Shown here in pieces: positions 3-63,970 of a stretch of DNA of 64,000 nt. The DNA lies in IMG/VR virus record IMGVR_UViG_3300033049_000013, positions 23,217 to 87,216 of that record. One strand, 5' to 3'. The first letter of the stretch is position 1. The number at the start of each line of letters is the position of its first letter. This DNA comes from a virus. The notes beneath the pieces were generated by a model that ran no database searches, was not told the DNA's origin, and saw nothing but the letters and a program-made list of their open reading frames with translations. The position numbers and the translations under genes were made by a program.

Positions 3-2318
3 AAAAAATCTAAATGGTATACTAAGCACCATGATGTAAGTGGTACTATTAAAAGGAGTTCTAGGTACTTACAAGAAGTAGACCCTGATAATGTATTTAC
101 TAAGGTTAGACCTTCTGCTGCTTATTCTACTTTCAAAGTTAAGGAAAAGTACATTAGAGATACTCAACTTAGTAGAGATGAAAATGGCGACTTATTACCT
201 AAGAAAAATAAATGGGTTAATAAGAAGTATAAAGATATTCAGAAAAGCAGTACATGGAAATATGCACATGATAACTTATTAGGATTCTTTAAAGATGCAC
301 AATCAATTTTACCTCAAGAACATAGAATGGGTAATATACTTCCATTCACTAGAAAAGCTAGTAAAGAGATACTTGCAGGTAAAAAAGGTATTGTAGAGAA
401 AGCTAAAGCTACTGGTAAATTAATAAAAGAGACCTTATTAATAAGTAATGCATTTGACTTAGAAGATGAAGGAGATAAAACTATGTATAACTTATCGTTA
501 GATCATAAGAAAATCCCTATGCCTTTTACTAAATCTAATTATGCAGTACAAGAAGAAGTATCTAAGGATGTTATTTCAGGAGTTATGCAATACGTAAAAG
601 CTGCCTATAAACATCAAGCTATAGACGATATGATGTCTGAGACTAGAATGCTAATGTCATTAGTAGACAAACGTGAAGGTCAAGATGGCAAAGGAGTTAT
701 ACGTAGAGATTCAATGGGTAACAAATTCTTTGATTCTATTGCTAAGAAATTAAATAAAGATAGTGAAGAATTAGTACGAGCTGATAAGCAAAGTTTAGCA
801 TCAGGATTACTTAAAGATTTTATTGAGATGCAAATATTAGGTGAGATGAATAAGCCTTATGAGATTGCAATTCCTTGGTACGATGGTAGTCAAGGTAAAC
901 TGAGAGTAGATAAAGTAGTAGACGGCTTTATGCAATACGCTTCTATTACTCAAATTGGTGGACTGAATATGGTTGGTGTACTTAAAGGTGCAGCTAACTC
1001 ATTACAAGCTCAATTACAAGTAGCTATAGAGAAATCAGCAGGTAAGTATTTTGATAAGAATTCATGGAGAGATGCAATGAGTTTCTTTAGAAAATCTAAT
1101 ACTGTAAAAGAAGCTTGGCAAGATTTCGGTAGAGCATTTAATACTACATTGAGTGGTCAGATGCGTTCTATCTATGACCCTATGCAAGGAGACTTCTTAG
1201 ACCAATATGGTGCTAAGATAGCTGGTAATAAAATACAACGAATGATGAGTACTAGTACTTGGTTCTTTAATCAATATGCTGGTGAATTCCAAATAGCTAT
1301 GGCTTCTATGTATGCACTACAAAATAACTACAAGATTGTAGATGGTGAGGTTTATAATAGAGATGAGTTTATTGAGATGAAACGAATAGAGGCACTGGAT
1401 AAGAATGAAGCATTTGGTTTCAGTGAGAAATTGTTTGCAGAGCAGGAATTCAAATCTATTGCTAGTAGTCTAAGGGATGCTTATGAACTTAAAGATGGTC
1501 ATATTTCTATCAAAGAAGGAGTCAATTGGCAAATAGGTTCTAATAGAGATAAAGAAATGAAATCTCGCTTACACGCTATTAATAAAGCATTACAAGGTAA
1601 CTATAACTCTTTTGACCAACCGACTATACAACGTAACTGGTTAGGTAGACTTCTTATAATGTATAAGAAATATCTAGTACCAGGAATGTTAAGAAGATTT
1701 GGTGGTATTCGTAGAGATGAAGAGCTTGGTGATTTAACATATGGTTACTATAGAAACTTCTTCAAGTTGATGGTACATGATACAAAAGCTCTATGGGGTG
1801 AGTACTATAACAATGTATTAAAGACAGGATTAACTGCTGGTAAAGCTGGTGGTGATTTTGATAGTAAGTTAAGTGACCTTGAAAGAGAGAATATACGTAG
1901 AGCTGCTAAGGAATTAACTTCATTACTTATGTTATTCATGTTAGTAGCTGTAATGGCTCCAGGAGATGATGAAGATAAGTCTAAGATTAGTAGTACTAGG
2001 TATACAGCATTGTATTTAGCTGAACGATTGAAGAAAGAGGTTTCATCAATGTCACCTAATCCAGTTGGCTTAGTAGCCGATAACTGGAAACTATTAAGAA
2101 GTCCATCAGCTATTAGTGGATTTGTAGACAGATTCTTAAAATTAATAGTTCAAGTTGGTGACCCAACTGCTACGTATGCTAAAGATACTGGAATTGCAGA
2201 GAAAGGAGATAATAAATTGTATATTAAAGCAAGAAAATTAATGGGTACATTAGCCTTACCAGGATTTGAACCTACTACTTCAAGAGAAGCATTCGAAAAC
2301 TTAAATAGATTTATGTAA
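3..2318 (+). CDS. C-terminal part of a large virion/cargo-type protein (5'-truncated by the window edge)
   Basis: The frame of ORF 327..2318 is open from position 3 (KKSKWYTKHHDV...QEHR then MGN), so the ATG at 327 is internal. The sequence is helical with a late hydrophobic segment (LLMLFMLVAVM) and resembles C-termini of giant crAss-like ejected proteins (by-eye resemblance and position only). Confidence 0.6.
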   Translation, partial: KKSKWYTKHHDVSGTIKRSSRYLQEVDPDNVFTKVRPSAAYSTFKVKEKYIRDTQLSRDENGDLLPKKNKWVNKKYKDIQKSSTWKYAHDNLLGFFKDAQSILPQEHRMGNILPFTRKASKEILAGKKGIVEKAKATGKLIKETLLISNAFDLEDEGDKTMYNLSLDHKKIPMPFTKSNYAVQEEVSKDVISGVMQYVKAAYKHQAIDDMMSETRMLMSLVDKREGQDGKGVIRRDSMGNKFFDSIAKKLNKDSEELVRADKQSLASGLLKDFIEMQILGEMNKPYEIAIPWYDGSQGKLRVDKVVDGFMQYASITQIGGLNMVGVLKGAANSLQAQLQVAIEKSAGKYFDKNSWRDAMSFFRKSNTVKEAWQDFGRAFNTTLSGQMRSIYDPMQGDFLDQYGAKIAGNKIQRMMSTSTWFFNQYAGEFQIAMASMYALQNNYKIVDGEVYNRDEFIEMKRIEALDKNEAFGFSEKLFAEQEFKSIASSLRDAYELKDGHISIKEGVNWQIGSNRDKEMKSRLHAINKALQGNYNSFDQPTIQRNWLGRLLIMYKKYLVPGMLRRFGGIRRDEELGDLTYGYYRNFFKLMVHDTKALWGEYYNNVLKTGLTAGKAGGDFDSKLSDLERENIRRAAKELTSLLMLFMLVAVMAPGDDEDKSKISSTRYTALYLAERLKKEVSSMSPNPVGLVADNWKLLRSPSAISGFVDRFLKLIVQVGDPTATYAKDTGIAEKGDNKLYIKARKLMGTLALPGFEPTTSREAFENLNRFM

Positions 2319-13302: not shown

Positions 13303-16173
13303 TTATTTTCCCTTGAATTGTATTAATTCGTTTGGATCAACTTGACCTGACATTACCGCTTGATAGGCTGCTGGACCATAGTTTTTATAAATGTTTTGCA
13401 TTACTTGCCATTCAAATTGATTTTGTCTAGCATTTCCTAGTTGTCTACCAGTATCTACTATACCTGTACCAAATTGAGTAACAGCTTTATTTCTAAGTGA
13501 ATCCCTAGCTAACTCTGCAGCTCTATTTTCACTTCTTGCAGATTCCTCAGCTCTTCTACGGTCTTCACCTCTAGCTACTTGTGTCTTATCCGCAGCTTCA
13601 GCTAATTGAATATCAATAGCTTGTTCTCTCATTGCTAAATCTCTAGATTTATCACTCATAGTAGAATATAAGTTAGCACGTAAAGCATTCTGTGCCTGTG
13701 CATTACCTACTTGATTTTGAATACCTCTAGTAGCTGCTGTATATCCAGCGTGTAATGGTCTCTTATCTAAGTTAGATCTACGACTTCTTTGTCTATGTAG
13801 TACTTTAGCTAACTCAGGATTATACTTAGCTGATGTATAAGCTGGTGGCTTAAAAGATTCTGCTAAATTATAGATTGCTGGAGTAAATTCACCAGCTAAT
13901 TGCAACCATGCATCATCAGTTAATGAACCTAAATTACCTAAAAATCCATCACCACCACGTCCAGTATTACGTCCAGTATTATCTGGCTTACTATGTCTTC
14001 TACGTTTAGATTTAAACTCAGGAGCATCTACAAGAGCTACTTGTTCATCATATAAATCAGCATTATAAATATCTTCAGGAAAATACCCTTTTACATTTAG
14101 AGGAGCAATAGCATCACCAGGAGCAGTAACAGGAGAACCATTACCACTAAAACCAGAAGTATTATTACTACTATTAGTTGGAGTTTGTGTTAATGGATTA
14201 CTTTGTAGAAAACTACTTATATCTTCTCCATAGCCAATACTACTCATAGGTTGTCCTCTAAAGTCATTTTGACTAAATAAACCTTGACTTAAATCCATTT
14301 CTTCATCCCCTGTGTCACCACCTATTTGATATTGTCTTCTTGAGTATCCTCCGAATTCTCTATTAGGTGTAAGCGATTCATAAAATGGAGATGGTAAAAG
14401 GTCAATTTCATTATCTTCTATAGAATTAGGATCTATTGGGAAATTATTAGCAGCGCCACTACTTATTGGTGCTGTTTGATTAGGTGCAACTGGATTAGGA
14501 AAAGGCTCAGACATTGGTTCATTAATAGTAGGTGCAACTTGTGAAGTACCTCTACTCTTTACTCTAGGTAAGTTAGCTAACCTATCTATTCTATCTAACT
14601 CAGCTAAATCCATTCTAGCACGTCTATTACCTTGTCTTGTAGTTACATCAGCAGTTCTATTAGCTTCTTGTGCTGCATTAATATTAGCAGCATGTTCAGC
14701 TCTATCAGCACTAGTTGTAGCACGTTCTATGCGTCTATTTAACTTCTCAGCAGCAGACTCATTTTTCTTTTGTTGGATTGCTGCTTTACGTCTAGCACGT
14801 TCTTGTGCCAGTCTACCTCCTGTAGGGTCAGTAGTTACATCTGCAGTACCTTGTACAGACGGATGTTGTTTAGTTACTTGTTCGTTTAATGCTGCTTGCT
14901 TTTCAGCAGTAGTTTGATTACTATTACTAGGTGTTTGTTTTCCAGTAAATAAATCATCTGCAACTGAATTTATCTCTACCCATTGGTCTTTAATGAAAGC
15001 AATATCACGTGGATTACTAAATCCTGAAGCTAATCCATCATTTAATTCCTGTGCCTCTAACAGTTGGTCTACTACACTTTGCTTGGCATTAGCACTATTA
15101 TCATTATTAGCACCTGGAGTAGTATTAGTTGTAGCATTGGCTTTTGCTGCCTTAGTTGCTGCTTTCTTCTTACCTGATGTAGGAGTATTGCCAGCTAGTA
15201 AATCACCTGCAGCCTTTGCTCCTGCTATATTTGCACTAGTTGCTATATTAGCTAAATTACCTGTACTTGGGTCAACTCCATTAAAGAATGGTCTTGCATG
15301 TGCAGCTTCTACTTGTTGCTGTGCAATCTCTTGAGCAGTTGGTGGACCAAACATTTCTCCATAATTAGGGAAATATTGTGATAAAATGTTACCATTATCA
15401 TCATCTAATTCGCCTGGTAATGGTGCATTACGTTCAAAACCTCCTACATAAGCATTAGCTTCCTCTGCTGTACCAGTAGTATATTTACTGTACGGATTTA
15501 CAGCTGGAGGAACAGGAGGATCAGGAGTTACTGTTGTACCTTTGGGTAACATTCCCTCAATCTTTACAGGTTGTCTAGGAGCAGACGCATTAGCAGCTAA
15601 CTCCTCAGTAATAGCTTCAGTAAACCCACTATACCCAGCTTCATTATTATATCTTACAACATCATCATACGTAGCTAAATATTGATTGTAAGCTTCTAAA
15701 TCTTCTGTAGCTAAGTTATCTGGATTAAAGTTAGGATTTTGCTGTACATGATTAAACCACCTATCAAAGTTAGCTCTAGTTTCAGGGTCATCTGTAACTC
15801 CTGGATAAATAACACTCCAGTCTAATACACTGTCAGTAGGTATAGTAGGAGTAGTTGGACCCGACCCAGGTGTTCTTAATCCTAATTGTGCTTTTATTCT
15901 TTTCTCGTACACGTTTTGTCCTTTAACAGTAAAGTCTCCTCCATTTGCTTTTGCAATTCCTGAGTCTGTAATTCTACCGTCGTCATCGAATCCATAGTAC
16001 ATTACATCATCATTCATACCTTTCATAGTCATATTCATTTCATTTCTGCCTCCTCCTGGAAATATCATAGATTCGTAATTGCTGTCCTTAAGACCAGTAC
16101 GAGCCATTCTAGAATTCCTTGCAACAGGGGCAGTTCCTCCATCTTGTTTTAAGTCTCTTATGTTAAATCTCAT
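13303..16173 (-). CDS. Cargo protein, low-complexity, 956 aa
   Basis: Pro/Asn/Ala-rich and probably disordered; xxxGG motifs (LKQDGG, QYQIGG); C-terminal helical region; position downstream of the muzzle-like gene as in crAss-like phages. Confidence 0.55.
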   Translation of the reverse strand: MRFNIRDLKQDGGTAPVARNSRMARTGLKDSNYESMIFPGGGRNEMNMTMKGMNDDVMYYGFDDDGRITDSGIAKANGGDFTVKGQNVYEKRIKAQLGLRTPGSGPTTPTIPTDSVLDWSVIYPGVTDDPETRANFDRWFNHVQQNPNFNPDNLATEDLEAYNQYLATYDDVVRYNNEAGYSGFTEAITEELAANASAPRQPVKIEGMLPKGTTVTPDPPVPPAVNPYSKYTTGTAEEANAYVGGFERNAPLPGELDDDNGNILSQYFPNYGEMFGPPTAQEIAQQQVEAAHARPFFNGVDPSTGNLANIATSANIAGAKAAGDLLAGNTPTSGKKKAATKAAKANATTNTTPGANNDNSANAKQSVVDQLLEAQELNDGLASGFSNPRDIAFIKDQWVEINSVADDLFTGKQTPSNSNQTTAEKQAALNEQVTKQHPSVQGTADVTTDPTGGRLAQERARRKAAIQQKKNESAAEKLNRRIERATTSADRAEHAANINAAQEANRTADVTTRQGNRRARMDLAELDRIDRLANLPRVKSRGTSQVAPTINEPMSEPFPNPVAPNQTAPISSGAANNFPIDPNSIEDNEIDLLPSPFYESLTPNREFGGYSRRQYQIGGDTGDEEMDLSQGLFSQNDFRGQPMSSIGYGEDISSFLQSNPLTQTPTNSSNNTSGFSGNGSPVTAPGDAIAPLNVKGYFPEDIYNADLYDEQVALVDAPEFKSKRRRHSKPDNTGRNTGRGGDGFLGNLGSLTDDAWLQLAGEFTPAIYNLAESFKPPAYTSAKYNPELAKVLHRQRSRRSNLDKRPLHAGYTAATRGIQNQVGNAQAQNALRANLYSTMSDKSRDLAMREQAIDIQLAEAADKTQVARGEDRRRAEESARSENRAAELARDSLRNKAVTQFGTGIVDTGRQLGNARQNQFEWQVMQNIYKNYGPAAYQAVMSGQVDPNELIQFKGK

Positions 16174-16200
16174 TTTAAATTTTTTTTACAATAGTCAACT

Positions 16201-16246
16201 TAATACTAAGGCTTATAAGAGTAATCCTATAAGCCTATAATATTAT
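16201..16246 (-). terminator. Intergenic hairpin (terminator or processing site)
   Basis: Minus strand AGGCTTATAGGA-TTAC-TCTTATAAGCCT; weak U tract. Confidence 0.5.
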
Positions 16247-16263
16247 TATAAAGTATTGTTCTT

Positions 16264-17817
16264 TTAGTATAAATCAAAATCTCCTGTCATAGAATCATAG
16301 TTAGACACTCGTCCTTGTACAGTTCTACCTCCTTTCTCAAATTTTACAAATTGACCAGGATTAACACCTTGAATTACAATTTCGTCTTGATATTTAAAGT
16401 CAGGAAAACCTCTATCATTTCTACCACCATGCATGAATTGAGCCACCTCATCTTCAGGAGACATCATACTCATATCATCCATTGGTGCTTCGAGTTGTTC
16501 TTGTGGTTGACCTTGTTGTTGACCTTGTTGAGGTTCACTACCTAAATCTTGATTAGGGTCAGAATTTTGTTCAATTAATTGTCCTAAGACTTGACCTATC
16601 TTACCTGTATGTAAGTTATTTAATGGAGTATTTTTAATTTCCTCCATAGAAATACCTTGTTGAAGTAATTCTTTTTCAAATCCTTCAGAGAAAATATCAG
16701 TAGGATTACCTTGTAGCTGTTCAGGACTTAAAGGCTTTAATGCATTAGGTATCATTTCCATTACTTGTTGAGCAACTTGTGCTCCTATATTCATAGAATC
16801 ATTACCTACAGAATCTACCTCTTGCATATCTTGAGGTGTTGTCTCAGGTAATTGCATTGCTTGCTCTTCTTGTAATGCTGGATTCATTTCTGCTTCCATC
16901 ATACCACCTTCTTGATAAGAACGTCTTGAGTAAGGACTCATGTCTTCACCTATGTTATTCTCTACATTGTAAGTATGTCTATCCTTGGGAGATAATCTAC
17001 TAGGGTCTTGATAAGAATTACCACCTAATTGCATAACAATATTATCTTGATATTTGAAATCAGGGAATCCACGGTCATTAATACCACCTCCATATGCCCT
17101 ATTTCGTCTAGGCATAAATCCACCATTACGTTGAATAGGTACACCATTTTGAGGTGGTGACGGTTGATTTAAATCTGGTTGAGCTGGCATCTCAGCAGGT
17201 TGTTGTGAAGCTGCTAATTGAGGTAATTCTAAATTAGCCACAGCTTGCTGGTCATTACCTGCTAAAGTTTCAGCTTCATTAGGATTTTCTTGCATAATAA
17301 AATCCATTACAGAACCAAACTCTCTACCTTTTTTCTTTAATAGGTCGTGTAATCCCTTCATAAACCTACCTTCATTTTGTCTCTGTTCCATCATAGACAA
17401 TTCTTCTTCTAACATTGCTTTAGCTTTAGGGTCGTTTAAATATCTATCTCTAGGATTGTTTTCGGCTTTACTGAAATATTTCATATAAGGTTTCATATCA
17501 TCTGCCTGTGATTTACCATATTTCTTTCCCGCAGGAAATCCTTTTTCGGTAATCTTAGCAGAAGCTATATATACGGATTCATCAGTCTTCATAGGTATAC
17601 CCTCAGTACCACCTGCGTTTTTTTGACCATGCCTAGCACCATTAGCTAGAAAGCCTTTAGAAGAGACTTTACTAGCACTAGCACCACCAAACATAGACAC
17701 ATCGCTTGGGTTACCAACAACGACTTCACCACCTTCAATTTCAACATCTACAGCATCACCACCGTCTTCTTTAAAAGTAAGAGGATAGGGACTATTACGT
17801 CCCCCCTCTTTTAATAC
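16264..17817 (-). CDS. Cargo protein, distal part; probably reached by -1 frameshift from ORF 17811..19061 rather than the GTG at 17700
   Basis: The frame is open for 39 codons upstream of GTG 17700 (VLKEGGRNSPYPLTFKEDGGDAVDVEIEGGEVVVG) with no ATG/GTG/TTG back to the preceding in-frame TAG. It contains a VEIEGGEV motif resembling crAss-like cargo proteins, and an internal repeat NDRGFPDFKYQD. Confidence 0.7.
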   Translation of the reverse strand, partial: VLKEGGRNSPYPLTFKEDGGDAVDVEIEGGEVVVGNPSDVSMFGGASASKVSSKGFLANGARHGQKNAGGTEGIPMKTDESVYIASAKITEKGFPAGKKYGKSQADDMKPYMKYFSKAENNPRDRYLNDPKAKAMLEEELSMMEQRQNEGRFMKGLHDLLKKKGREFGSVMDFIMQENPNEAETLAGNDQQAVANLELPQLAASQQPAEMPAQPDLNQPSPPQNGVPIQRNGGFMPRRNRAYGGGINDRGFPDFKYQDNIVMQLGGNSYQDPSRLSPKDRHTYNVENNIGEDMSPYSRRSYQEGGMMEAEMNPALQEEQAMQLPETTPQDMQEVDSVGNDSMNIGAQVAQQVMEMIPNALKPLSPEQLQGNPTDIFSEGFEKELLQQGISMEEIKNTPLNNLHTGKIGQVLGQLIEQNSDPNQDLGSEPQQGQQQGQPQEQLEAPMDDMSMMSPEDEVAQFMHGGRNDRGFPDFKYQDEIVIQGVNPGQFVKFEKGGRTVQGRVSNYDSMTGDFDLY

Positions 17818-58444: not shown

Positions 58445-58624
58445 TCGAGCTTACCCCGTGCCTTCATAGAGAATATTCTAATTTTCGGTCAATCATAATT
58501 AATCAATAATTATGAGAAATCTGAGATGTCGGAGTGTTTTTCTACGAAAAACGTAGTAGTTCGGTATCCATTACTCAATAATTATTCTAACTGGAACAAA
58601 TATGTTCCATCAAAAACAAACAAC

Positions 58625-59695
58625 ATGCCTAGTACAAAAGAAGTTTTATCGAACAAGAACATCAAACAATTAGCTAAGAAATTCGGTATTCCGACTAACA
58701 AAGCTAATAGCTTAAAACCTGCAGTCTTATTGACATTGTTGAAAGAAACAATGTTAAATCATTCTGATTTACCTGATGATGAAGAAGCTGCCAATGCTTG
58801 GTATTTTGGTCTCATCAATCCTATCGTATCATCATTTGATAATGGTGATGATATTGATGACTTCATCGAGTCATTAGAATCTGAACCAGTTAAATCTGAT
58901 GATGATGCTGATGATGCTGAAGATTCACCTGTTGTAACAATGGGAGACCCAAATCTCGCATTCAAAGGGCAAACAGGTTACGTGACTATGCAACGTAAAA
59001 GAACCAATGATGAGCGTATCTACAAGATGTCAACTCAAGCTGACTTCAAAAAGAACAATGGTGAGTCACCTGTATTATTTCGTTGTGATGAAATCGCAGT
59101 GTTAGAAACTGGTGGTGGTCAAGGTGCAACGTCTTATAAAGATGTTATCATGCAAGGTAAACTGTATGATGAAGCAAATAGTACTGTTGGTAAAGAAATC
59201 TCTTTACAAACAAACACCAATTTGTTCAAAGCAATGAAAACTTCTATGTTTAAAGGCTTTGAATTTGATGGTGATGTACCTATTTTAGAAGGTGCAACTT
59301 GGTTAAACATCGTTGTTAAAGAACAAAAAGCTGGAGTAACTATCTCTCGTGTAACTGATGCTAAACAAGTAGCTGTTATTAAAGCTGCTAATGGTGAAAT
59401 CACATTACGCAAAAAGAAATCAGTTGGTTATATCTTTGATGCAACTGACTCTGACCAAGAATCATTTGTACGCTTCAAAGGTGTTGCTGCCGATGATGAT
59501 GTTCGTCGTATCAACGTTTACTTGGATAGAAAGAATACCAACAAAGCTGATGATGAGAGCTATGCTTCTCGTAAATCAATTGACTTTGCTAGTGCTCGTG
59601 CTAATGCAAAACAAGCAGGTGGTTTACTACAAGATTTGATTGACTCAGGATTGTCTGCTGCAGTTGCTCAAACTATCTTAATGGGTAAATTATAA
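58625..59695 (+). CDS. Probably highly expressed early protein of unknown function, 356 aa; likely start ATG 58625
   Basis: A-rich leader (AAAAACAAACAAC) before MPSTKE; frequent CGT/AAC/TTC/ATC codons; acidic linker; own terminator. Confidence 0.75.
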   Translation: MPSTKEVLSNKNIKQLAKKFGIPTNKANSLKPAVLLTLLKETMLNHSDLPDDEEAANAWYFGLINPIVSSFDNGDDIDDFIESLESEPVKSDDDADDAEDSPVVTMGDPNLAFKGQTGYVTMQRKRTNDERIYKMSTQADFKKNNGESPVLFRCDEIAVLETGGGQGATSYKDVIMQGKLYDEANSTVGKEISLQTNTNLFKAMKTSMFKGFEFDGDVPILEGATWLNIVVKEQKAGVTISRVTDAKQVAVIKAANGEITLRKKKSVGYIFDATDSDQESFVRFKGVAADDDVRRINVYLDRKNTNKADDESYASRKSIDFASARANAKQAGGLLQDLIDSGLSAAVAQTILMGKL

Positions 59696-59721: not shown

Positions 59722-59757
59722 AAGAGTGTGTTGTCTAACGACTTCACGCTCTTTTTT
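59722..59757 (+). terminator. Intrinsic terminator
   Basis: AAGAGTGTG...CACGCTCTT followed by TTTT. Confidence 0.8.
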
Positions 59758-60283
59758 CAGTTAATTCCATTATCTTTTTTTCAATCAACGTTGCCTAAAT
59801 CAGGCAACACAAAGTAAATGGTGTGTTCGGGAAAAACCTAATCGGTGTTCGTCATTGGATACAAGGCAGATTTTCCCTACTGAGTATTCCTTCACTCCAG
59901 TCACATCCAGCATATTTGATTTATCAAATAACTCCGTCATCTCAAACACCTCAATCACTACAATCAATTCAAGCTCAACCACTTAGGTATGAGTCATAAC
60001 TAGCCTCGATTGTAGTTAAATGATGGGGAAATGATTGAGAATATGGAAGATATAGAGTAAATGAGTAGTCCTATCACTCCCCTCTTATAAACCCCCAATT
60101 CCACTCACTTCTCACAGACCCTCAATCTACCACATATACTATGTATTAGCCTAAAGCCATAATAAGCCCTCTAAGGCTCTAAACCGTTTTTGTTATAGAT
60201 AACACTAAAAGGGGAGCAAAACCTCTTTAAAACACCAAAATAATACCAATTAACATCATTTTACACCACAATTACATAAAACT

Positions 60284-60460
60284 ATGAAACGTTTAAGTAG
60301 CACACTTAAAAATTGTATCACAGATCCAAAGTTTATCATACTCAACATAATAAATGGAGTAGCATTGTATCAGTCTATAGCCAATGACGCATTTGGTCAA
60401 GTACTAACAATAATCATCATAATAAACATCGGATGGATTATAGTTGAACACAAGTTATAA
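60284..60460 (+). CDS. Small membrane protein, 58 aa (not in the ORF track)
   Basis: MKRLSSTLKNCITDPKFIILNIING...VLTIIIIINIGWIIVEHKL; CACCAC leader. Confidence 0.6.
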   Translation: MKRLSSTLKNCITDPKFIILNIINGVALYQSIANDAFGQVLTIIIIINIGWIIVEHKL

Positions 60461-60508
60461 ACTTCAATCACCACAATTACATAAAACAACTAAAAACAAT
60501 AAACTATT

Positions 60509-60817
60509 ATGAATACAGTTCAACCAACAGTACCAACAGTACCAGCTAAAGAAGATGTAAGAGATGCATTAGTAAACAGTATAATTGATTTTATACTAAG
60601 ATACGGCAAATCAATACCAGTAGAATATGTAGCTGGAAACCTTGACTGCATTTACTACATTCACATACTATCTAGTCCTGATGAACTAATCATACGATTC
60701 TCTACATTTGAAGAGAAGAAATATTACTTCATTGAGAATATTAGTACAGATGACTTATACGAATTAAATAGCATCGCTAAAGAAATAGTGGAACATAGTG
60801 AAAATCCACCAGCATAA
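60509..60817 (+). CDS. Hypothetical early protein, 102 aa
   Basis: ORF with CACCAC/A-rich leader. Confidence 0.7.
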   Translation: MNTVQPTVPTVPAKEDVRDALVNSIIDFILRYGKSIPVEYVAGNLDCIYYIHILSSPDELIIRFSTFEEKKYYFIENISTDDLYELNSIAKEIVEHSENPPA

Positions 60818-60857
60818 AACATCATTTTAACACCACTTTACATAAAACAATAGTAGC

Positions 60858-61310
60858 ATGAAATTCACAGTAACAGTAATAATGACTAAAACTACGAATC
60901 AAAATTTCACTCATACCACCGAAGGATATGAATTGGTTCAAGAGATTAGAAAGGATTTAGAACTACCTAATCTGGCAACAGACAGAATTAGCGAGTCTGT
61001 GACAAATCTAAGACATAATGATAATAGAATTATGCCAGGCTTCATAGAAGAAGTACCAACGGAACAAAGAACAGTTCAAGTCACAGATAATGACCTTAAT
61101 AAAATAGGTGACTTATTTGGCTCACTATGCCAGATCACCGTCAAAGTTGACGGATGTATATTAAAAGGAGAATTACAAGTAGAAAAAGGAGACAATGGCG
61201 AAGTGACCAATGTCTTTAATCGTTACACTATCAATGAAGGACTATTAATACAGTTGTTACAAGAACAATGTAGTCCTACAGAAGATGGGTTATATGAAAT
61301 AACACACTAA
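60858..61310 (+). CDS. Hypothetical early protein, 150 aa
   Basis: ORF with CACCAC/A-rich leader. Confidence 0.7.
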   Translation: MKFTVTVIMTKTTNQNFTHTTEGYELVQEIRKDLELPNLATDRISESVTNLRHNDNRIMPGFIEEVPTEQRTVQVTDNDLNKIGDLFGSLCQITVKVDGCILKGELQVEKGDNGEVTNVFNRYTINEGLLIQLLQEQCSPTEDGLYEITH

Positions 61311-61338
61311 TTTATTAGTGTAATCATAGAATATATAA

Positions 61339-61367
61339 TACCAGCCTGTTAATACAACAGGTTGGTA
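61339..61367 (+). other. Hairpin abutting the hammerhead
   Basis: TACCAGCCTGTT-AATAC-AACAGGTTGGTA; no U tract; the last 2 nt are shared with hammerhead stem III. Confidence 0.7.
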
Positions 61368-61428
61368 CTGTCGTTACTCCGATAAGAGTAGCCTGATGAG
61401 TAAAGGTTTTAACACCTACGAAACAGTA
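61366..61428 (+). ncRNA. Type III hammerhead ribozyme; predicted cleavage after C61372
   Basis: Stem III TACTG/CAGTA, GTC cleavage triplet, stem I GTTACTC-CGATAA-GAGTAGC, core CTGATGA, stem II GTA(AA)GGT-TTTAAC-ACCTAC, GAAA. Confidence 0.9.
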
Positions 61429-61457
61429 GTCAATCACCACATTAAATCCAATAAACC

Positions 61458-61748
61458 ATGAAACGAATTAAAGACAAAATAGCTGAATTAAACAAAGTCG
61501 TACCTATCACTGATAAGGACAGACTAAACAAAGCAGCTAGACGTATTCATTTCAACATAATGCTAATAGTAGAAGCTGAATTAGATAGACAAAATCTCCG
61601 TAAAATAGAATTAGCGGAGATAATGGAAATACCTAGAAGCAATCTAGCAGCATTATACTCAGGTAAAGTACTTCTAACGCTAAAGACTATCGTAAAGATA
61701 GAAATAGCATTAGATATGAAGATTGAATATTCACCACAAACAAATTAA
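61458..61748 (+). CDS. XRE/Cro-family HTH transcriptional regulator, 96 aa
   Basis: LRKIELAEIMEIPRSNLAALYSGKVLLTLKTIVKIEIALD. Confidence 0.8.
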   Translation: MKRIKDKIAELNKVVPITDKDRLNKAARRIHFNIMLIVEAELDRQNLRKIELAEIMEIPRSNLAALYSGKVLLTLKTIVKIEIALDMKIEYSPQTN

Positions 61749-61761
61749 AATATAACTAATC

Positions 61762-62199
61762 ATGAACACAGTAAACTTAGACTTCGACCTAGTAAACCAA
61801 GTAAAATCACCTGCTAACTTTCCAGAATGGTTTACACTATCGTACTTAGTAACCAAATTCTTTCAAGATACTGTAATGTCTGCATGGACTGACCAATCAA
61901 TATTAGATTGGAGAGCTAATGAAGATGGAACACTCAAACCTTATGCACCATGCGTAGAGCTATTTGCAATAGGCAAGAACAGCGGAGGTTCATTTGATGA
62001 CTTCCTGTACAATGCAAAGAAAGAAGCAATTGGAAACTATTATGTCTATAATGGTTCAATTTCAATGTTCAATTATAGAGAGTTTAATGCTCCTATAAAT
62101 GATTGGGAAGACCAATACCTAGCATTATATAATGCCAAGTATAATACCAAGTATGTTAGCCCATCAACGGTTAATATGAATATTATACGGAGTAAATAA
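61762..62199 (+). CDS. Hypothetical early protein, 145 aa
   Basis: ORF with CACCAC/A-rich leader. Confidence 0.7.
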   Translation: MNTVNLDFDLVNQVKSPANFPEWFTLSYLVTKFFQDTVMSAWTDQSILDWRANEDGTLKPYAPCVELFAIGKNSGGSFDDFLYNAKKEAIGNYYVYNGSISMFNYREFNAPINDWEDQYLALYNAKYNTKYVSPSTVNMNIIRSK

Positions 62200-62206
62200 C
62201 AATCAC

Positions 62207-62251
62207 TACATTAATAACCTATTATCTGTTAGGTAATAGGTTATTAATGTA
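62207..62251 (+). other. 21-bp intergenic hairpin
   Basis: TACATTAATAACCTATTATCT-GTT-AGGTAATAGGTTATTAATGTA, one G-U pair. Confidence 0.8.
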
Positions 62252-62298
62252 ACACTTTCAATTAAATTGTAATCACCACAAAATAAATAAAAACAATA

Positions 62299-62587
62299 AT
62301 GGCTAATACAAAAACAATTTCCACTAGTAAAGACATTAAGAAAACAACTAGAAACTAAATTAGTAGAATTAGTGATACTTCATACTAAATCTATTACATT
62401 ATCATACGAATCAGAACGTGTAGGTGAAGTAATAGGTATAAGTATCACTTCTAATGAACATAGACTATCAGTTATGTTCTTAATATCATCTGTTGAAGAT
62501 GAAAATGATTTAGATGTCAAAGTACTAACATTCGAGGCTATGGTCTTAGATGACCTGTTAGCTTTAAATGAACTACTATCTAAATAG
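62299..62587 (+). pseudogene. Early gene apparently split by a 1-nt frameshift (~95 aa if joined)
   Basis: The CACCAC-led ATG 62299 stops after 19 codons; the +1 frame is open from just after that ATG into ORF 62372..62587. Confidence 0.5.
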
Positions 62588-62636
62588 TAAGCTTACAGCA
62601 GCACAAAAGTAATTATTCACCACACAATAAACAATC

Positions 62637-62825
62637 ATGGTAAAGTTTAAAACAATAGTAATTTTAATAGCATTAGTGTGTTTAGATACATCTATATACT
62701 ATTATTATGATAACATTACTGACAATGGTTTTACTGTTGCTTACTATCTCATAGGACTACTAATAAATACTCTTGCTGGTATGTATCTAGGTAGCTTACA
62801 TCTTAAATACTTAATCTCTAAGTAA
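62637..62825 (+). CDS. Small two-TM membrane protein, 62 aa
   Basis: Two hydrophobic segments; CACCAC leader. Confidence 0.65.
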   Translation: MVKFKTIVILIALVCLDTSIYYYYDNITDNGFTVAYYLIGLLINTLAGMYLGSLHLKYLISK

Positions 62826-62938
62826 TTGAAAGATGATAACTGGTAGTTAATAGGTAATGGAAATTTCGAGTCAATAATAGCATCATAATCTGCTGCTATT
62901 ATTGACATACTAATATAATCGAGTTCAAACAAAACTAA

Positions 62939-63070
62939 GTGAAAAAACTAGAAAAAGAAATAGCAGCTATTGAATTACAAATAGATAATTGTGCAAACAC
63001 TGTAGAATTATTGAGCTTGTACAAGAAGCATAAAGAGTTACTAGAAGAGCTATTAGCACTAGAAAAGTAA
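62939..63070 (+). CDS. Small coiled-coil protein, 43 aa (GTG start; not in the ORF track)
   Basis: MKKLEKEIAAIELQIDNCANTVELLSLYKKHKELLEELLALEK; A-rich leader but no CACCAC. Confidence 0.5.
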   Translation: MKKLEKEIAAIELQIDNCANTVELLSLYKKHKELLEELLALEK

Positions 63071-63101
63071 TTATATTTAATCACCACTAAATCAATAACT
63101 T

Positions 63102-63437
63102 GTGACAGCAACTAAGACATTTCTAAACGGTCAGACTCATTATTCTGTAGGTAAATTCTTTTGTATTACCATTACTAAAGAAGAGTGGGATGAGTTAGTA
63201 AAACTCTATAAAAGAAAACCTACTGAGTTAAGTAGTGGTATGGAAATCATGTACTTAAGTCGTAATGAAGATATACCTAAAGAATTAGTATCTAAGTATG
63301 CTACCAAAATACTTGAGGCTCATCCTGTTAGTTGTAACGAAGAAAAAGTTAAAGAAGAAATCAAATATTTTGAGTATGAGTTATCTATACTTAAACGAAA
63401 TTTAGACCATTTAGCTGATATTAAAGCATTAATATAA
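63102..63437 (+). CDS. Hypothetical early protein, 111 aa
   Basis: GTG start with CACCAC leader. Confidence 0.65.
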   Translation: MTATKTFLNGQTHYSVGKFFCITITKEEWDELVKLYKRKPTELSSGMEIMYLSRNEDIPKELVSKYATKILEAHPVSCNEEKVKEEIKYFEYELSILKRNLDHLADIKALI

Positions 63438-63456
63438 TCACCACAAAACAATAATC

Positions 63457-63723
63457 ATGGCTAAGTTACAAAAGAAATTAGTAAGAGAAATCAAAAAGCT
63501 TAAAATAAAGATCTTCTATAAAGGCTTATACGATAGAGTATGGGAAGGTTATACGCAAGATACTTGTGAAGATGCTTATAAGAAAGGTTTTGTTAGAGTG
63601 TACGAAGCATATAGTTGCAGTAAAGGCTCTAGTGCCACTTATCGTAAATGTGCTTATGTGGATATACCATTCAATGGAAATATGCATTTTCACCCTAATC
63701 CTAACTCTCCTTATCTTACTTAA
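63457..63723 (+). CDS. Hypothetical basic early protein, 88 aa
   Basis: ATG with CACCAC leader. Confidence 0.65.
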   Translation: MAKLQKKLVREIKKLKIKIFYKGLYDRVWEGYTQDTCEDAYKKGFVRVYEAYSCSKGSSATYRKCAYVDIPFNGNMHFHPNPNSPYLT

Positions 63724-63761
63724 AAATATAAAATCTGAGTCGTCCCTTAGAAGTTTATGCC

Positions 63762-63802
63762 GACCATACTGTACCCTTATTTATGCAGTATGGTCATTTT
63801 TA
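63762..63802 (+). terminator. Terminator-like hairpin
   Basis: GACCATACTGTA...TGCAGTATGGTC then ATTTTT. Confidence 0.6.
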
Positions 63803-63824
63803 CTAACACCACAAAACAATAACC

Positions 63825-63953
63825 GTGAGCAATAAAGAAACCAGTAGTCATAAAGTACAAGTAGCAATAGTAATACTATTCATACTAATGTACTTATTCA
63901 GTGATAGTATACTAGACATAAGATATTATGTATGGTCATTACTATTATCATAA
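63825..63953 (+). CDS. Small membrane protein, 42 aa (GTG start; not in the ORF track)
   Basis: MSNKETSSHKVQVAIVILFILMYLFSDSILDIRYYVWSLLLS; CACCAC leader. Confidence 0.55.
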   Translation: MSNKETSSHKVQVAIVILFILMYLFSDSILDIRYYVWSLLLS

Positions 63954-63970
63954 CACCACAATAAGTAACA

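Follow-up and report, generated by a model that had tools for sequence, protein, structure and literature searches.

How a long phage transcript could be divided among its genes is the question raised by a short gap between two small genes of an uncultured virus, where an earlier note, made from the letters alone, had placed a complete hammerhead ribozyme just ahead of a putative regulator gene. Is this element a real ribozyme, and what would its cleavage do to the RNA on each side? The window analysed here (64,000 nucleotides) is the final 64 kb of a linear IMG/VR record of 87,216 bp, which is estimated to be 62% complete and was found in just one public run, a seawater DNA metagenome that may be its source sample; no RNA run was listed for it.

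A portal protein, TerL, a capsid protein and a GroEL are recognisable in the window. In the phage collection TerL is matched best by phages that are mostly crAss-like, at about 29% identity, many of them with Bacteroides, Flavobacterium or Cellulophaga hosts. These matches support the crAss-like assignment made in the earlier note and the description of the virus as an uncultured marine crAss-like phage, whose host probably belongs to the Bacteroidota. The scan of genome contigs gave no host clue: of its two matches, one was a phage-like fragment within a bin and the other was due to chance. The INPHARED phage collection contains no DNA match to window positions 60500-62300, and three contigs with an 80-88% identical capsid protein show no hammerhead but are too short to reach the ribozyme region.

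All ORFs between about 60.2 kb and the contig end are small and lie on the + strand, so the ribozyme is located on the sense strand of its neighbours. The features around it are the following:

60858..61310, + strand: upstream ORF of 150 aa, with no known family and a singleton in protein searches
61304..61321, strand not assigned: 18-bp palindrome ACACTAAT-TT-ATTAGTGT (perfect 8+8), over the stop codon of ORF 60858-61310
61339..61367, + strand: hairpin of 12 bp with loop AAUAC and one G.U pair, present in the MFE and centroid folds and conserved in the contig L118
61458..61748, + strand: ORF of 96 aa of XRE/HTH_3 type, with Pfam HTH_3 and PHROG HTH matches
61762..62199, + strand: ORF of 145 aa, conserved in the syntenic contig L118 with 38% identity

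A terminator-like hairpin followed by UUUUUU is found at 59722-59758 (+), just after a 389-aa ORF (58526-59695), which suggests that the small-gene run with the ribozyme is transcribed as a unit of its own, beginning beyond about 59.8 kb. Concerning the gene behind the ribozyme, its earlier identification as XRE-type holds, weakly, with a marginal 23.5 bits against Pfam HTH_3 (cut-off 23) and an E-value of 3e-5 against the PHROG HTH families. The palindrome, about 140 nt ahead of this gene, may be a small hairpin or serve as a binding site for a protein, for example as an operator, and the rest of the window shows no enrichment of its half-site. Another hairpin, of 21 bp with 95% complementarity and a 3-nt loop, occupies 62207-62251 (+) in the gap after ORF 61762-62199, with no Rfam ribozyme match, and sits 19 nt before one of the CACCAC boxes described below.

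In the word-indexed protein search the XRE ORF, the 389-aa ORF and the 145-aa ORF matched themselves alone, and the search for related loci with the XRE ORF, the 150-aa ORF and the alignment A4 gave no match. Since the neighbouring proteins lack close relatives in the searched databases, relatives were sought by the RNA itself.

Architecture of the hammerhead

The earlier note described a complete type III hammerhead at 61366-61428 (+), and every coordinate and letter of that description agrees with the sequence. Its parts are:

61366..61371, + strand: 5' strand of stem III, UACUGU (positions 16.6-16.1), from the sequence and the Rfam alignment
61372, + strand: C17 of the GUC triplet, with the predicted cut at 61372/61373, placed from the hammerhead consensus
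61373..61392, + strand: stem I hairpin GUUACUC-CGAUAA-GAGUAGC, 7 bp with one G.U (arms 61373-61379 and 61386-61392), from the sequence, Rfam and the fold
61393..61399, + strand: catalytic core strand CUGAUGA (C3-A9), from the sequence and the Rfam alignment
61400..61419, + strand: stem II GUA-AA-GGU/ACC-UAC with loop UUUAAC, the signature of a marine-phage family of 79 copies
61420..61428, + strand: G12 A13 A14 (GAA, 61420-61422) and then the 3' strand of stem III, ACAGUA (15.1-15.6), from the sequence and Rfam

The conserved core is complete (C3 U4 G5 A6 N7 G8 A9 together with G12 A13 A14) and is surrounded by three helices. Stem I, of 7 bp, starts from the core with G61373-C61392; stem II is built of 3 bp, an AA bulge and 3 bp, and is closed at the core by the G10.1-C11.1 pair (G61400-C61419); stem III joins U61366-U61371 with A61423-A61428 in 6 bp, including the core-adjacent A15.1-U16.1 (A61423-U61371). 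The cleavage nucleotide H17 is C61372, not G, and follows U16.1. Loops close stems I (CGAUAA) and II (UUUAAC), and stem III is open with its strands 51 nt apart, which is the type III topology. From the end of the element to the ATG at 61458 there are 29 nt, as previously counted.

In the search with the Rfam hammerhead models that the earlier note proposed, the whole 54-position model RF00008 aligns, with all conserved positions and the three helices, at 30.3 bits (E 8.7e-5 in a 301-nt scan with all families and E 5.9e-6 for the single family over the whole 87-kb record), but this is below the gathering score of 48.5, and the scan at the gathering threshold found no match in the window. Unlike the RF00008 consensus, the window has a longer stem II with the AA bulge and a longer loop I. 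The 301-nt and single-family searches show the hammerhead, whereas the 64-kb and 13.7-kb Rfam E-value scans lose it to filters.

A loose descriptor, which accepted both type I and type III and stems much shorter than those seen here (minimum 4/3/4 bp), found the hammerhead site alone in the window and only three sites in 300 simulated 64-kb windows. About 0.01 or fewer sites are thus expected by chance per window. No further hammerhead of any type (I, II or III) was detected in the 87-kb record, and no other Rfam ribozyme in the larger gaps of the window. A scan with the 14-mer GGTTGGTACTGTCG returned at least 117 matches, with no further hammerhead among the matches listed.

Regarding the folding of the 63-mer, its centroid structure is the hammerhead. 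The MFE structure and the two-sequence consensus with L118 contain an alternative helix, in which UACUGUC pairs with part of CUGAUGA and replaces stem III. Energies of -13.6 and -13.1 kcal/mol were obtained, and the MFE structure (a competing extension of stem I) is 0.5 kcal/mol below the hammerhead centroid. The short stem III also competes with the upstream hairpin for its outer 2 bp. This 12-bp hairpin abuts the hammerhead and shares 61366-61367 with stem III, exactly as had been noted before. It was considered as an intrinsic terminator and rejected, as there is no U-tract behind it and it does not appear in the consensus scan. Taken together with the comparisons below, 61366-61428 is a genuine hammerhead, and very probably a functional one.

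Relatives of the ribozyme

The core and the stem II signature GUAAAGG..ACCUAC were used to define a family, which was searched in viral and metagenome contigs. The search found 79 copies, spread over 9 viral contigs and 69 metagenome contigs that are for the most part of marine origin (TARA and further marine or seawater records). An anchored classifier assigned 74 of them to type I and 3 to no class; only the window and L118 carry type III. Stems I and III both form beside the core in 76 of the 79 copies, with a mean of 13.8 bp, compared with 94 of 1580 shuffled flanks (6%). Moreover, among the 38 distinct copies there are 15 versions of the stem I sequence and 22 of stem III, and stem I positions 5-6, which lie outside the demands of the filter, are paired in all 38. 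As stems I and III pair across so many sequence variants, the comparison indicates that this is a real structured RNA under selection. The covariation that the earlier note wanted to see is thus present, both in these variants and in the compensatory changes of L118.

The first of these relatives, L022, was met through the type III pattern. Its stretch from CUGAUGA through stem II to GAAAC shares 36 of 37 nt with the window, but its flanks are unpaired in the type III register. L022 is a type I hammerhead, with stem I AUUAAUC/GAUUAAU and a long capped hairpin as stem III, and its MFE fold is exactly this. Among the type I copies, most cut sites are 17-32 nt ahead of the following ATG, and the stop codon of the preceding gene is frequently adjacent to stem I or part of it.

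Some relatives carry arrays. In G004 (L083/L084) there are 7 complete type I hammerheads in 3.5 kb (13589-17076, - strand), and in G008 (L099, L103-L110), a record of 64.7 kb judged complete, 8 or 9 in about 5 kb (60300-64631 and 317-662, - strand). Both arrays have one hammerhead per small-gene gap, on the coding strand. The GUAAAGG stem II belongs to the first copy of the array in 4 of 5 multi-copy records, and adjacent copies share the stem I letters GATTAA/TTAATC. No homologue of the window capsid protein was detectable in the phages that carry arrays, and the ribozyme family therefore crosses phage lineages. When the Rfam type I model was run on 5 family records it gave one match, to an element with a different stem II, at 25.9 bits against a gathering score of 34; none of the copies with the GUAAAGG stem II was matched, and because of this the elements of the family are probably under-annotated.

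Mixed ribozyme clusters were also observed in three viral contigs, L050 (327-2396, - strand), L052 (39-3805, + strand) and L016 (7027-7082, - strand), where type III hammerheads whose stem III is spelled as in the window (UACUGU/ACAGUA) occur beside twister-P1 or twister-P3 matches.

The other type III copy, L118, is a marine metagenome contig of 4.5 kb. It is syntenic with the window, because the second gene downstream of the ribozyme is homologous in both (38% identity, E 5e-37). L118 has a 9-bp hairpin CCAACCUAU/AUAGGUUGG, one base, and then ACUGUC, and an 8-nt loop closes its stem I (GAUACU/AGUAUC). The two contigs agree in the core, stem II and GAAACAGU, and the hairpin and stem III are nearly identical letter for letter. 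From the window to L118 one G-C pair of the hairpin becomes A-U and one G.U becomes A-U, and the stem I pair 1.2/2.2 changes from U.G to A-U. The RNA block is far better conserved than the neighbouring protein, and the hairpin, kept in L118 with the compensatory G-C to A-U change, is supported by this comparison as part of a conserved module.

Directly behind the ribozyme the window has the XRE-type gene, whereas L118 has a 73-aa ORF unrelated to it. The link between ribozyme and XRE regulator drawn in the earlier note does not survive this comparison: as the first downstream gene differs and the second is homologous, the two contigs indicate that the ribozyme-hairpin block is tied to the operon position and not to the regulator. 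A possible terminator of the preceding gene is also seen in L118: a hairpin of 14 bp at 26-58 (+), with UUUAAAAA behind it, that stands 25 nt ahead of the hairpin adjoining the ribozyme.

In L299, a 105-kb viral contig with a distant homologue of the 145-aa gene, there is no hammerhead core within 2.5 kb. Its gene-free gap at 2044-2150 (+) shows a long-range stem AGCAGAGCC ... GGCUCUGCU around smaller helices.

Proposed effect of cleavage on the transcript

The reading that we favour, with a probability of about three in four, is that an active type III hammerhead cuts the sense transcript of the small + strand genes and uncouples the fates of the RNAs on both sides. Hammerhead chemistry is well established and consists of the attack of a 2'-OH on the adjacent phosphate. 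The three-way junction would fold co-transcriptionally, once RNA polymerase has passed 61428, and the 2'-OH of C61372 would attack its own 3' phosphate, cutting between 61372 and 61373. The upstream RNA (ORFs 60284-61310) would end in the hairpin 61339-61367 followed by CUGUC with a 2',3'-cyclic phosphate, the hairpin standing 5 nt from the 3' end after the predicted cleavage. The downstream RNA would start with a 5'-OH at G61373, with the hairpins of stems I and II flush at its 5' end, and would continue with the 29-nt leader, which holds a CACCAC box, the XRE-type gene and the genes behind it. Each side would have a structured end, and the likely effect is that their fates are uncoupled. The sequences show the motif, its statistical support, the family, the covariation, the synteny and the conservation of the hairpin; that the locus is transcribed, that the substrate is polycistronic, that cleavage occurs in vivo and that stability or translation may be affected is inferred.

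The box in the leader belongs to a series:

61432..61440, + strand: CACCAC box AATCACCAC, one of 11, 3 nt behind the ribozyme

The 11 copies (WWTCACCAC or ACACCAC) are distributed over 60261-63959 (+) of the window, 11-34 nt ahead of 11 consecutive start codons, and the exact WWTCACCAC occurs 8 times against 1.5 expected. The box may serve as a promoter, mark a site of processing or form an element of the leader; a promoter at this place, downstream of the ribozyme, would leave most XRE mRNA without the ribozyme. The relatives with type I arrays show a related leader, TTAATCAC..AAAACTATCAAAATG, immediately after the cut site. Cleavage of the boxes in trans was considered and rejected because they do not match the arms of the ribozyme, whose stem I is, in addition, closed by a loop; the substrate pattern TACTGTH/GYTACTC (cut at the slash), allowing at most one mismatch, finds the cis site only.

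The meaning of the hairpin is better seen beside the type I relatives. In them the ribozyme would stay on the upstream product, which would end in the stem III hairpin plus one nucleotide, and the downstream message would begin with a 5'-OH and a short open leader. The window and L118 would be reversed: the body of the ribozyme would cap the downstream message as a flush 5' hairpin, and the upstream product would have just a single-stranded tail of 6-7 nt if it were not for the extra hairpin, which would take the place of the stem III hairpin capping the upstream product in type I. The protective 3' hairpin imagined in the earlier note fits this comparative pattern, in that type I ends in the stem III hairpin and type III in the extra one, but the argument rests on a single evolutionary event, as there are only two type III copies in the family and they share ancestry. 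It is tentatively suggested, then, that the family switched from type I to type III and that the new hairpin replaced the cap, which would point to selection for hairpin-capped ends; we consider this possible rather than probable. The switch could possibly have originated when, in an array, the tail of one type I copy was fused to the head of the next one after the intervening gene had been lost.

The substrate might instead be shorter. If a promoter lay between the palindrome 61304-61321 and the hairpin, the ribozyme would only trim the 5' end of a primary transcript, taking off its triphosphate leader and giving an XRE message that starts with a 5'-OH and a hairpin. The layout offers some room for this, since the window and L118 both have a hairpin or palindrome after the upstream gene and then an AT-rich stretch before the conserved hairpin, with a -10-like hexamer (TATAAT at 61334-61339 in the window, TATAAA in L118), and the first hairpin of L118, with its UUUAAAAA, is terminator-like. 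There is also a precedent in the hammerhead of the haloviruses HF1/HF2, at the first gene of an early transcript (PMC3088659). However, the consensus promoter scan listed no + strand promoter at the ribozyme locus, and a start about 7 nt past TATAAT would land inside the 5' arm of the conserved hairpin. No early promoters are known for crAss-like phages (bioRxiv 10.1101/2020.03.07.982082), and the type I relatives lie directly against the preceding stop codon, which fits read-through transcripts. Trimming of this kind is rather unlikely, and cleavage of a longer sense transcript is preferred.

The changing gene behind the block leads to another possibility, namely that the hairpin and the hammerhead are kept mainly as a cassette boundary for gene swapping, or as a selfish module, with cleavage being secondary. 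Between the window and L118 the XRE gene gives way to the unrelated 73-aa ORF, but the block and the gene after the variable one are conserved; the stem II family appears in phages without a detectable homologue of the window capsid, neighbouring array copies repeat the stem I letters GATTAA/TTAATC, and the genes flanked by phage hammerheads are not constant (PMC3088659). Nevertheless, compensatory variation of stems I and III around an invariant core reflects constraints at the RNA level that a DNA recombination site would not need, so a role mainly as boundary seems improbable; a boundary is compatible with the cleavage reading, and both may be true. Finally, an inactive relic or chance look-alike, for example a rearranged type I remnant, is very improbable. 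In its favour, the Rfam score is under the threshold, the hammerhead is the sole one in the 87-kb record, its topology is atypical for the stem II family and an alternative fold competes with stem III. Against it, no catalytic position is lost, L118 shares the topology and shows compensatory changes despite 38% identity of the neighbouring protein, and the chance expectation is about 0.01 or less.

Comparison with known phage hammerheads and significance

Hammerheads that act between phage genes have been described before. In prophages, multiple hammerheads flank single genes, and their cleavage has been demonstrated both in vitro and within E. coli (Perreault et al. 2011, PLoS Comput Biol, PMC3088659), and it was proposed that they process long phage transcripts into single-gene mRNAs (PMC3088659). 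In the haloviruses HF1/HF2 a hammerhead lies 13 nt before an early gene, and a mapped 5' end fits its cut site (PMC3088659). A 2019 review mentions differing stabilities or translation efficiencies as suggested consequences and regards the purpose of phage hammerheads as still undefined (PMC6765202). The earlier note knew of no description of this arrangement in a crAss-like early operon, but the arrangement itself is not new: the layout and the idea of processing are already present in these two papers (PMC3088659, PMC6765202). Our literature search found no paper reporting a hammerhead in a crAss-like phage, and one preprint places hatchet ribozymes largely in Crassvirales.

The window resembles the prophage clusters of Perreault et al. 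in that a canonical hammerhead on the coding strand sits between genes of a phage operon, near the next start codon, with the same proposed role of cutting the transcript and with flanked genes that vary. It differs in carrying a single copy instead of a cluster (arrays are found in the relatives G004 and G008), in belonging to an uncultured marine crAss-like phage and not to a prophage, and in the conserved extra hairpin that adjoins its open stem III. With the type I marine family (GUAAAGG-UUUAAAC-ACCUAC) it shares the core and stem II, the location in small-gene gaps and the A-rich leader behind; unlike this family, in which stem I is open, stem III is capped and the ribozyme would remain on the upstream product, the ribozyme of the window and L118 would go with the downstream product. 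Like the HHphage element of HF1/HF2, whose gene is in the early region, it precedes a start codon by a few tens of nt. HHphage, however, is a structural variant from an archaeal virus that needs unusual conditions, whereas the core of the window element is canonical and its phage probably infects Bacteroidota. The element of the window is a good but ordinary case of a layout that was already described in 2011, and it stands out only by its reversed topology with respect to nearly all its family relatives.

What biological role the many phage hammerheads play has yet to be settled (PMC6765202), and the stem II family is abundant in ocean metagenomes. The window copy offers a testable case, with a single ribozyme and a conserved partner hairpin before a regulator gene in a crAss-like phage. 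Furthermore, the presence of type I and type III within one family is a natural experiment on which of the two cleavage products needs a structured end, and if the switch and the new hairpin are more than a coincidence, they would be comparative evidence that these phage ribozymes serve to protect RNA ends and not only to cut.
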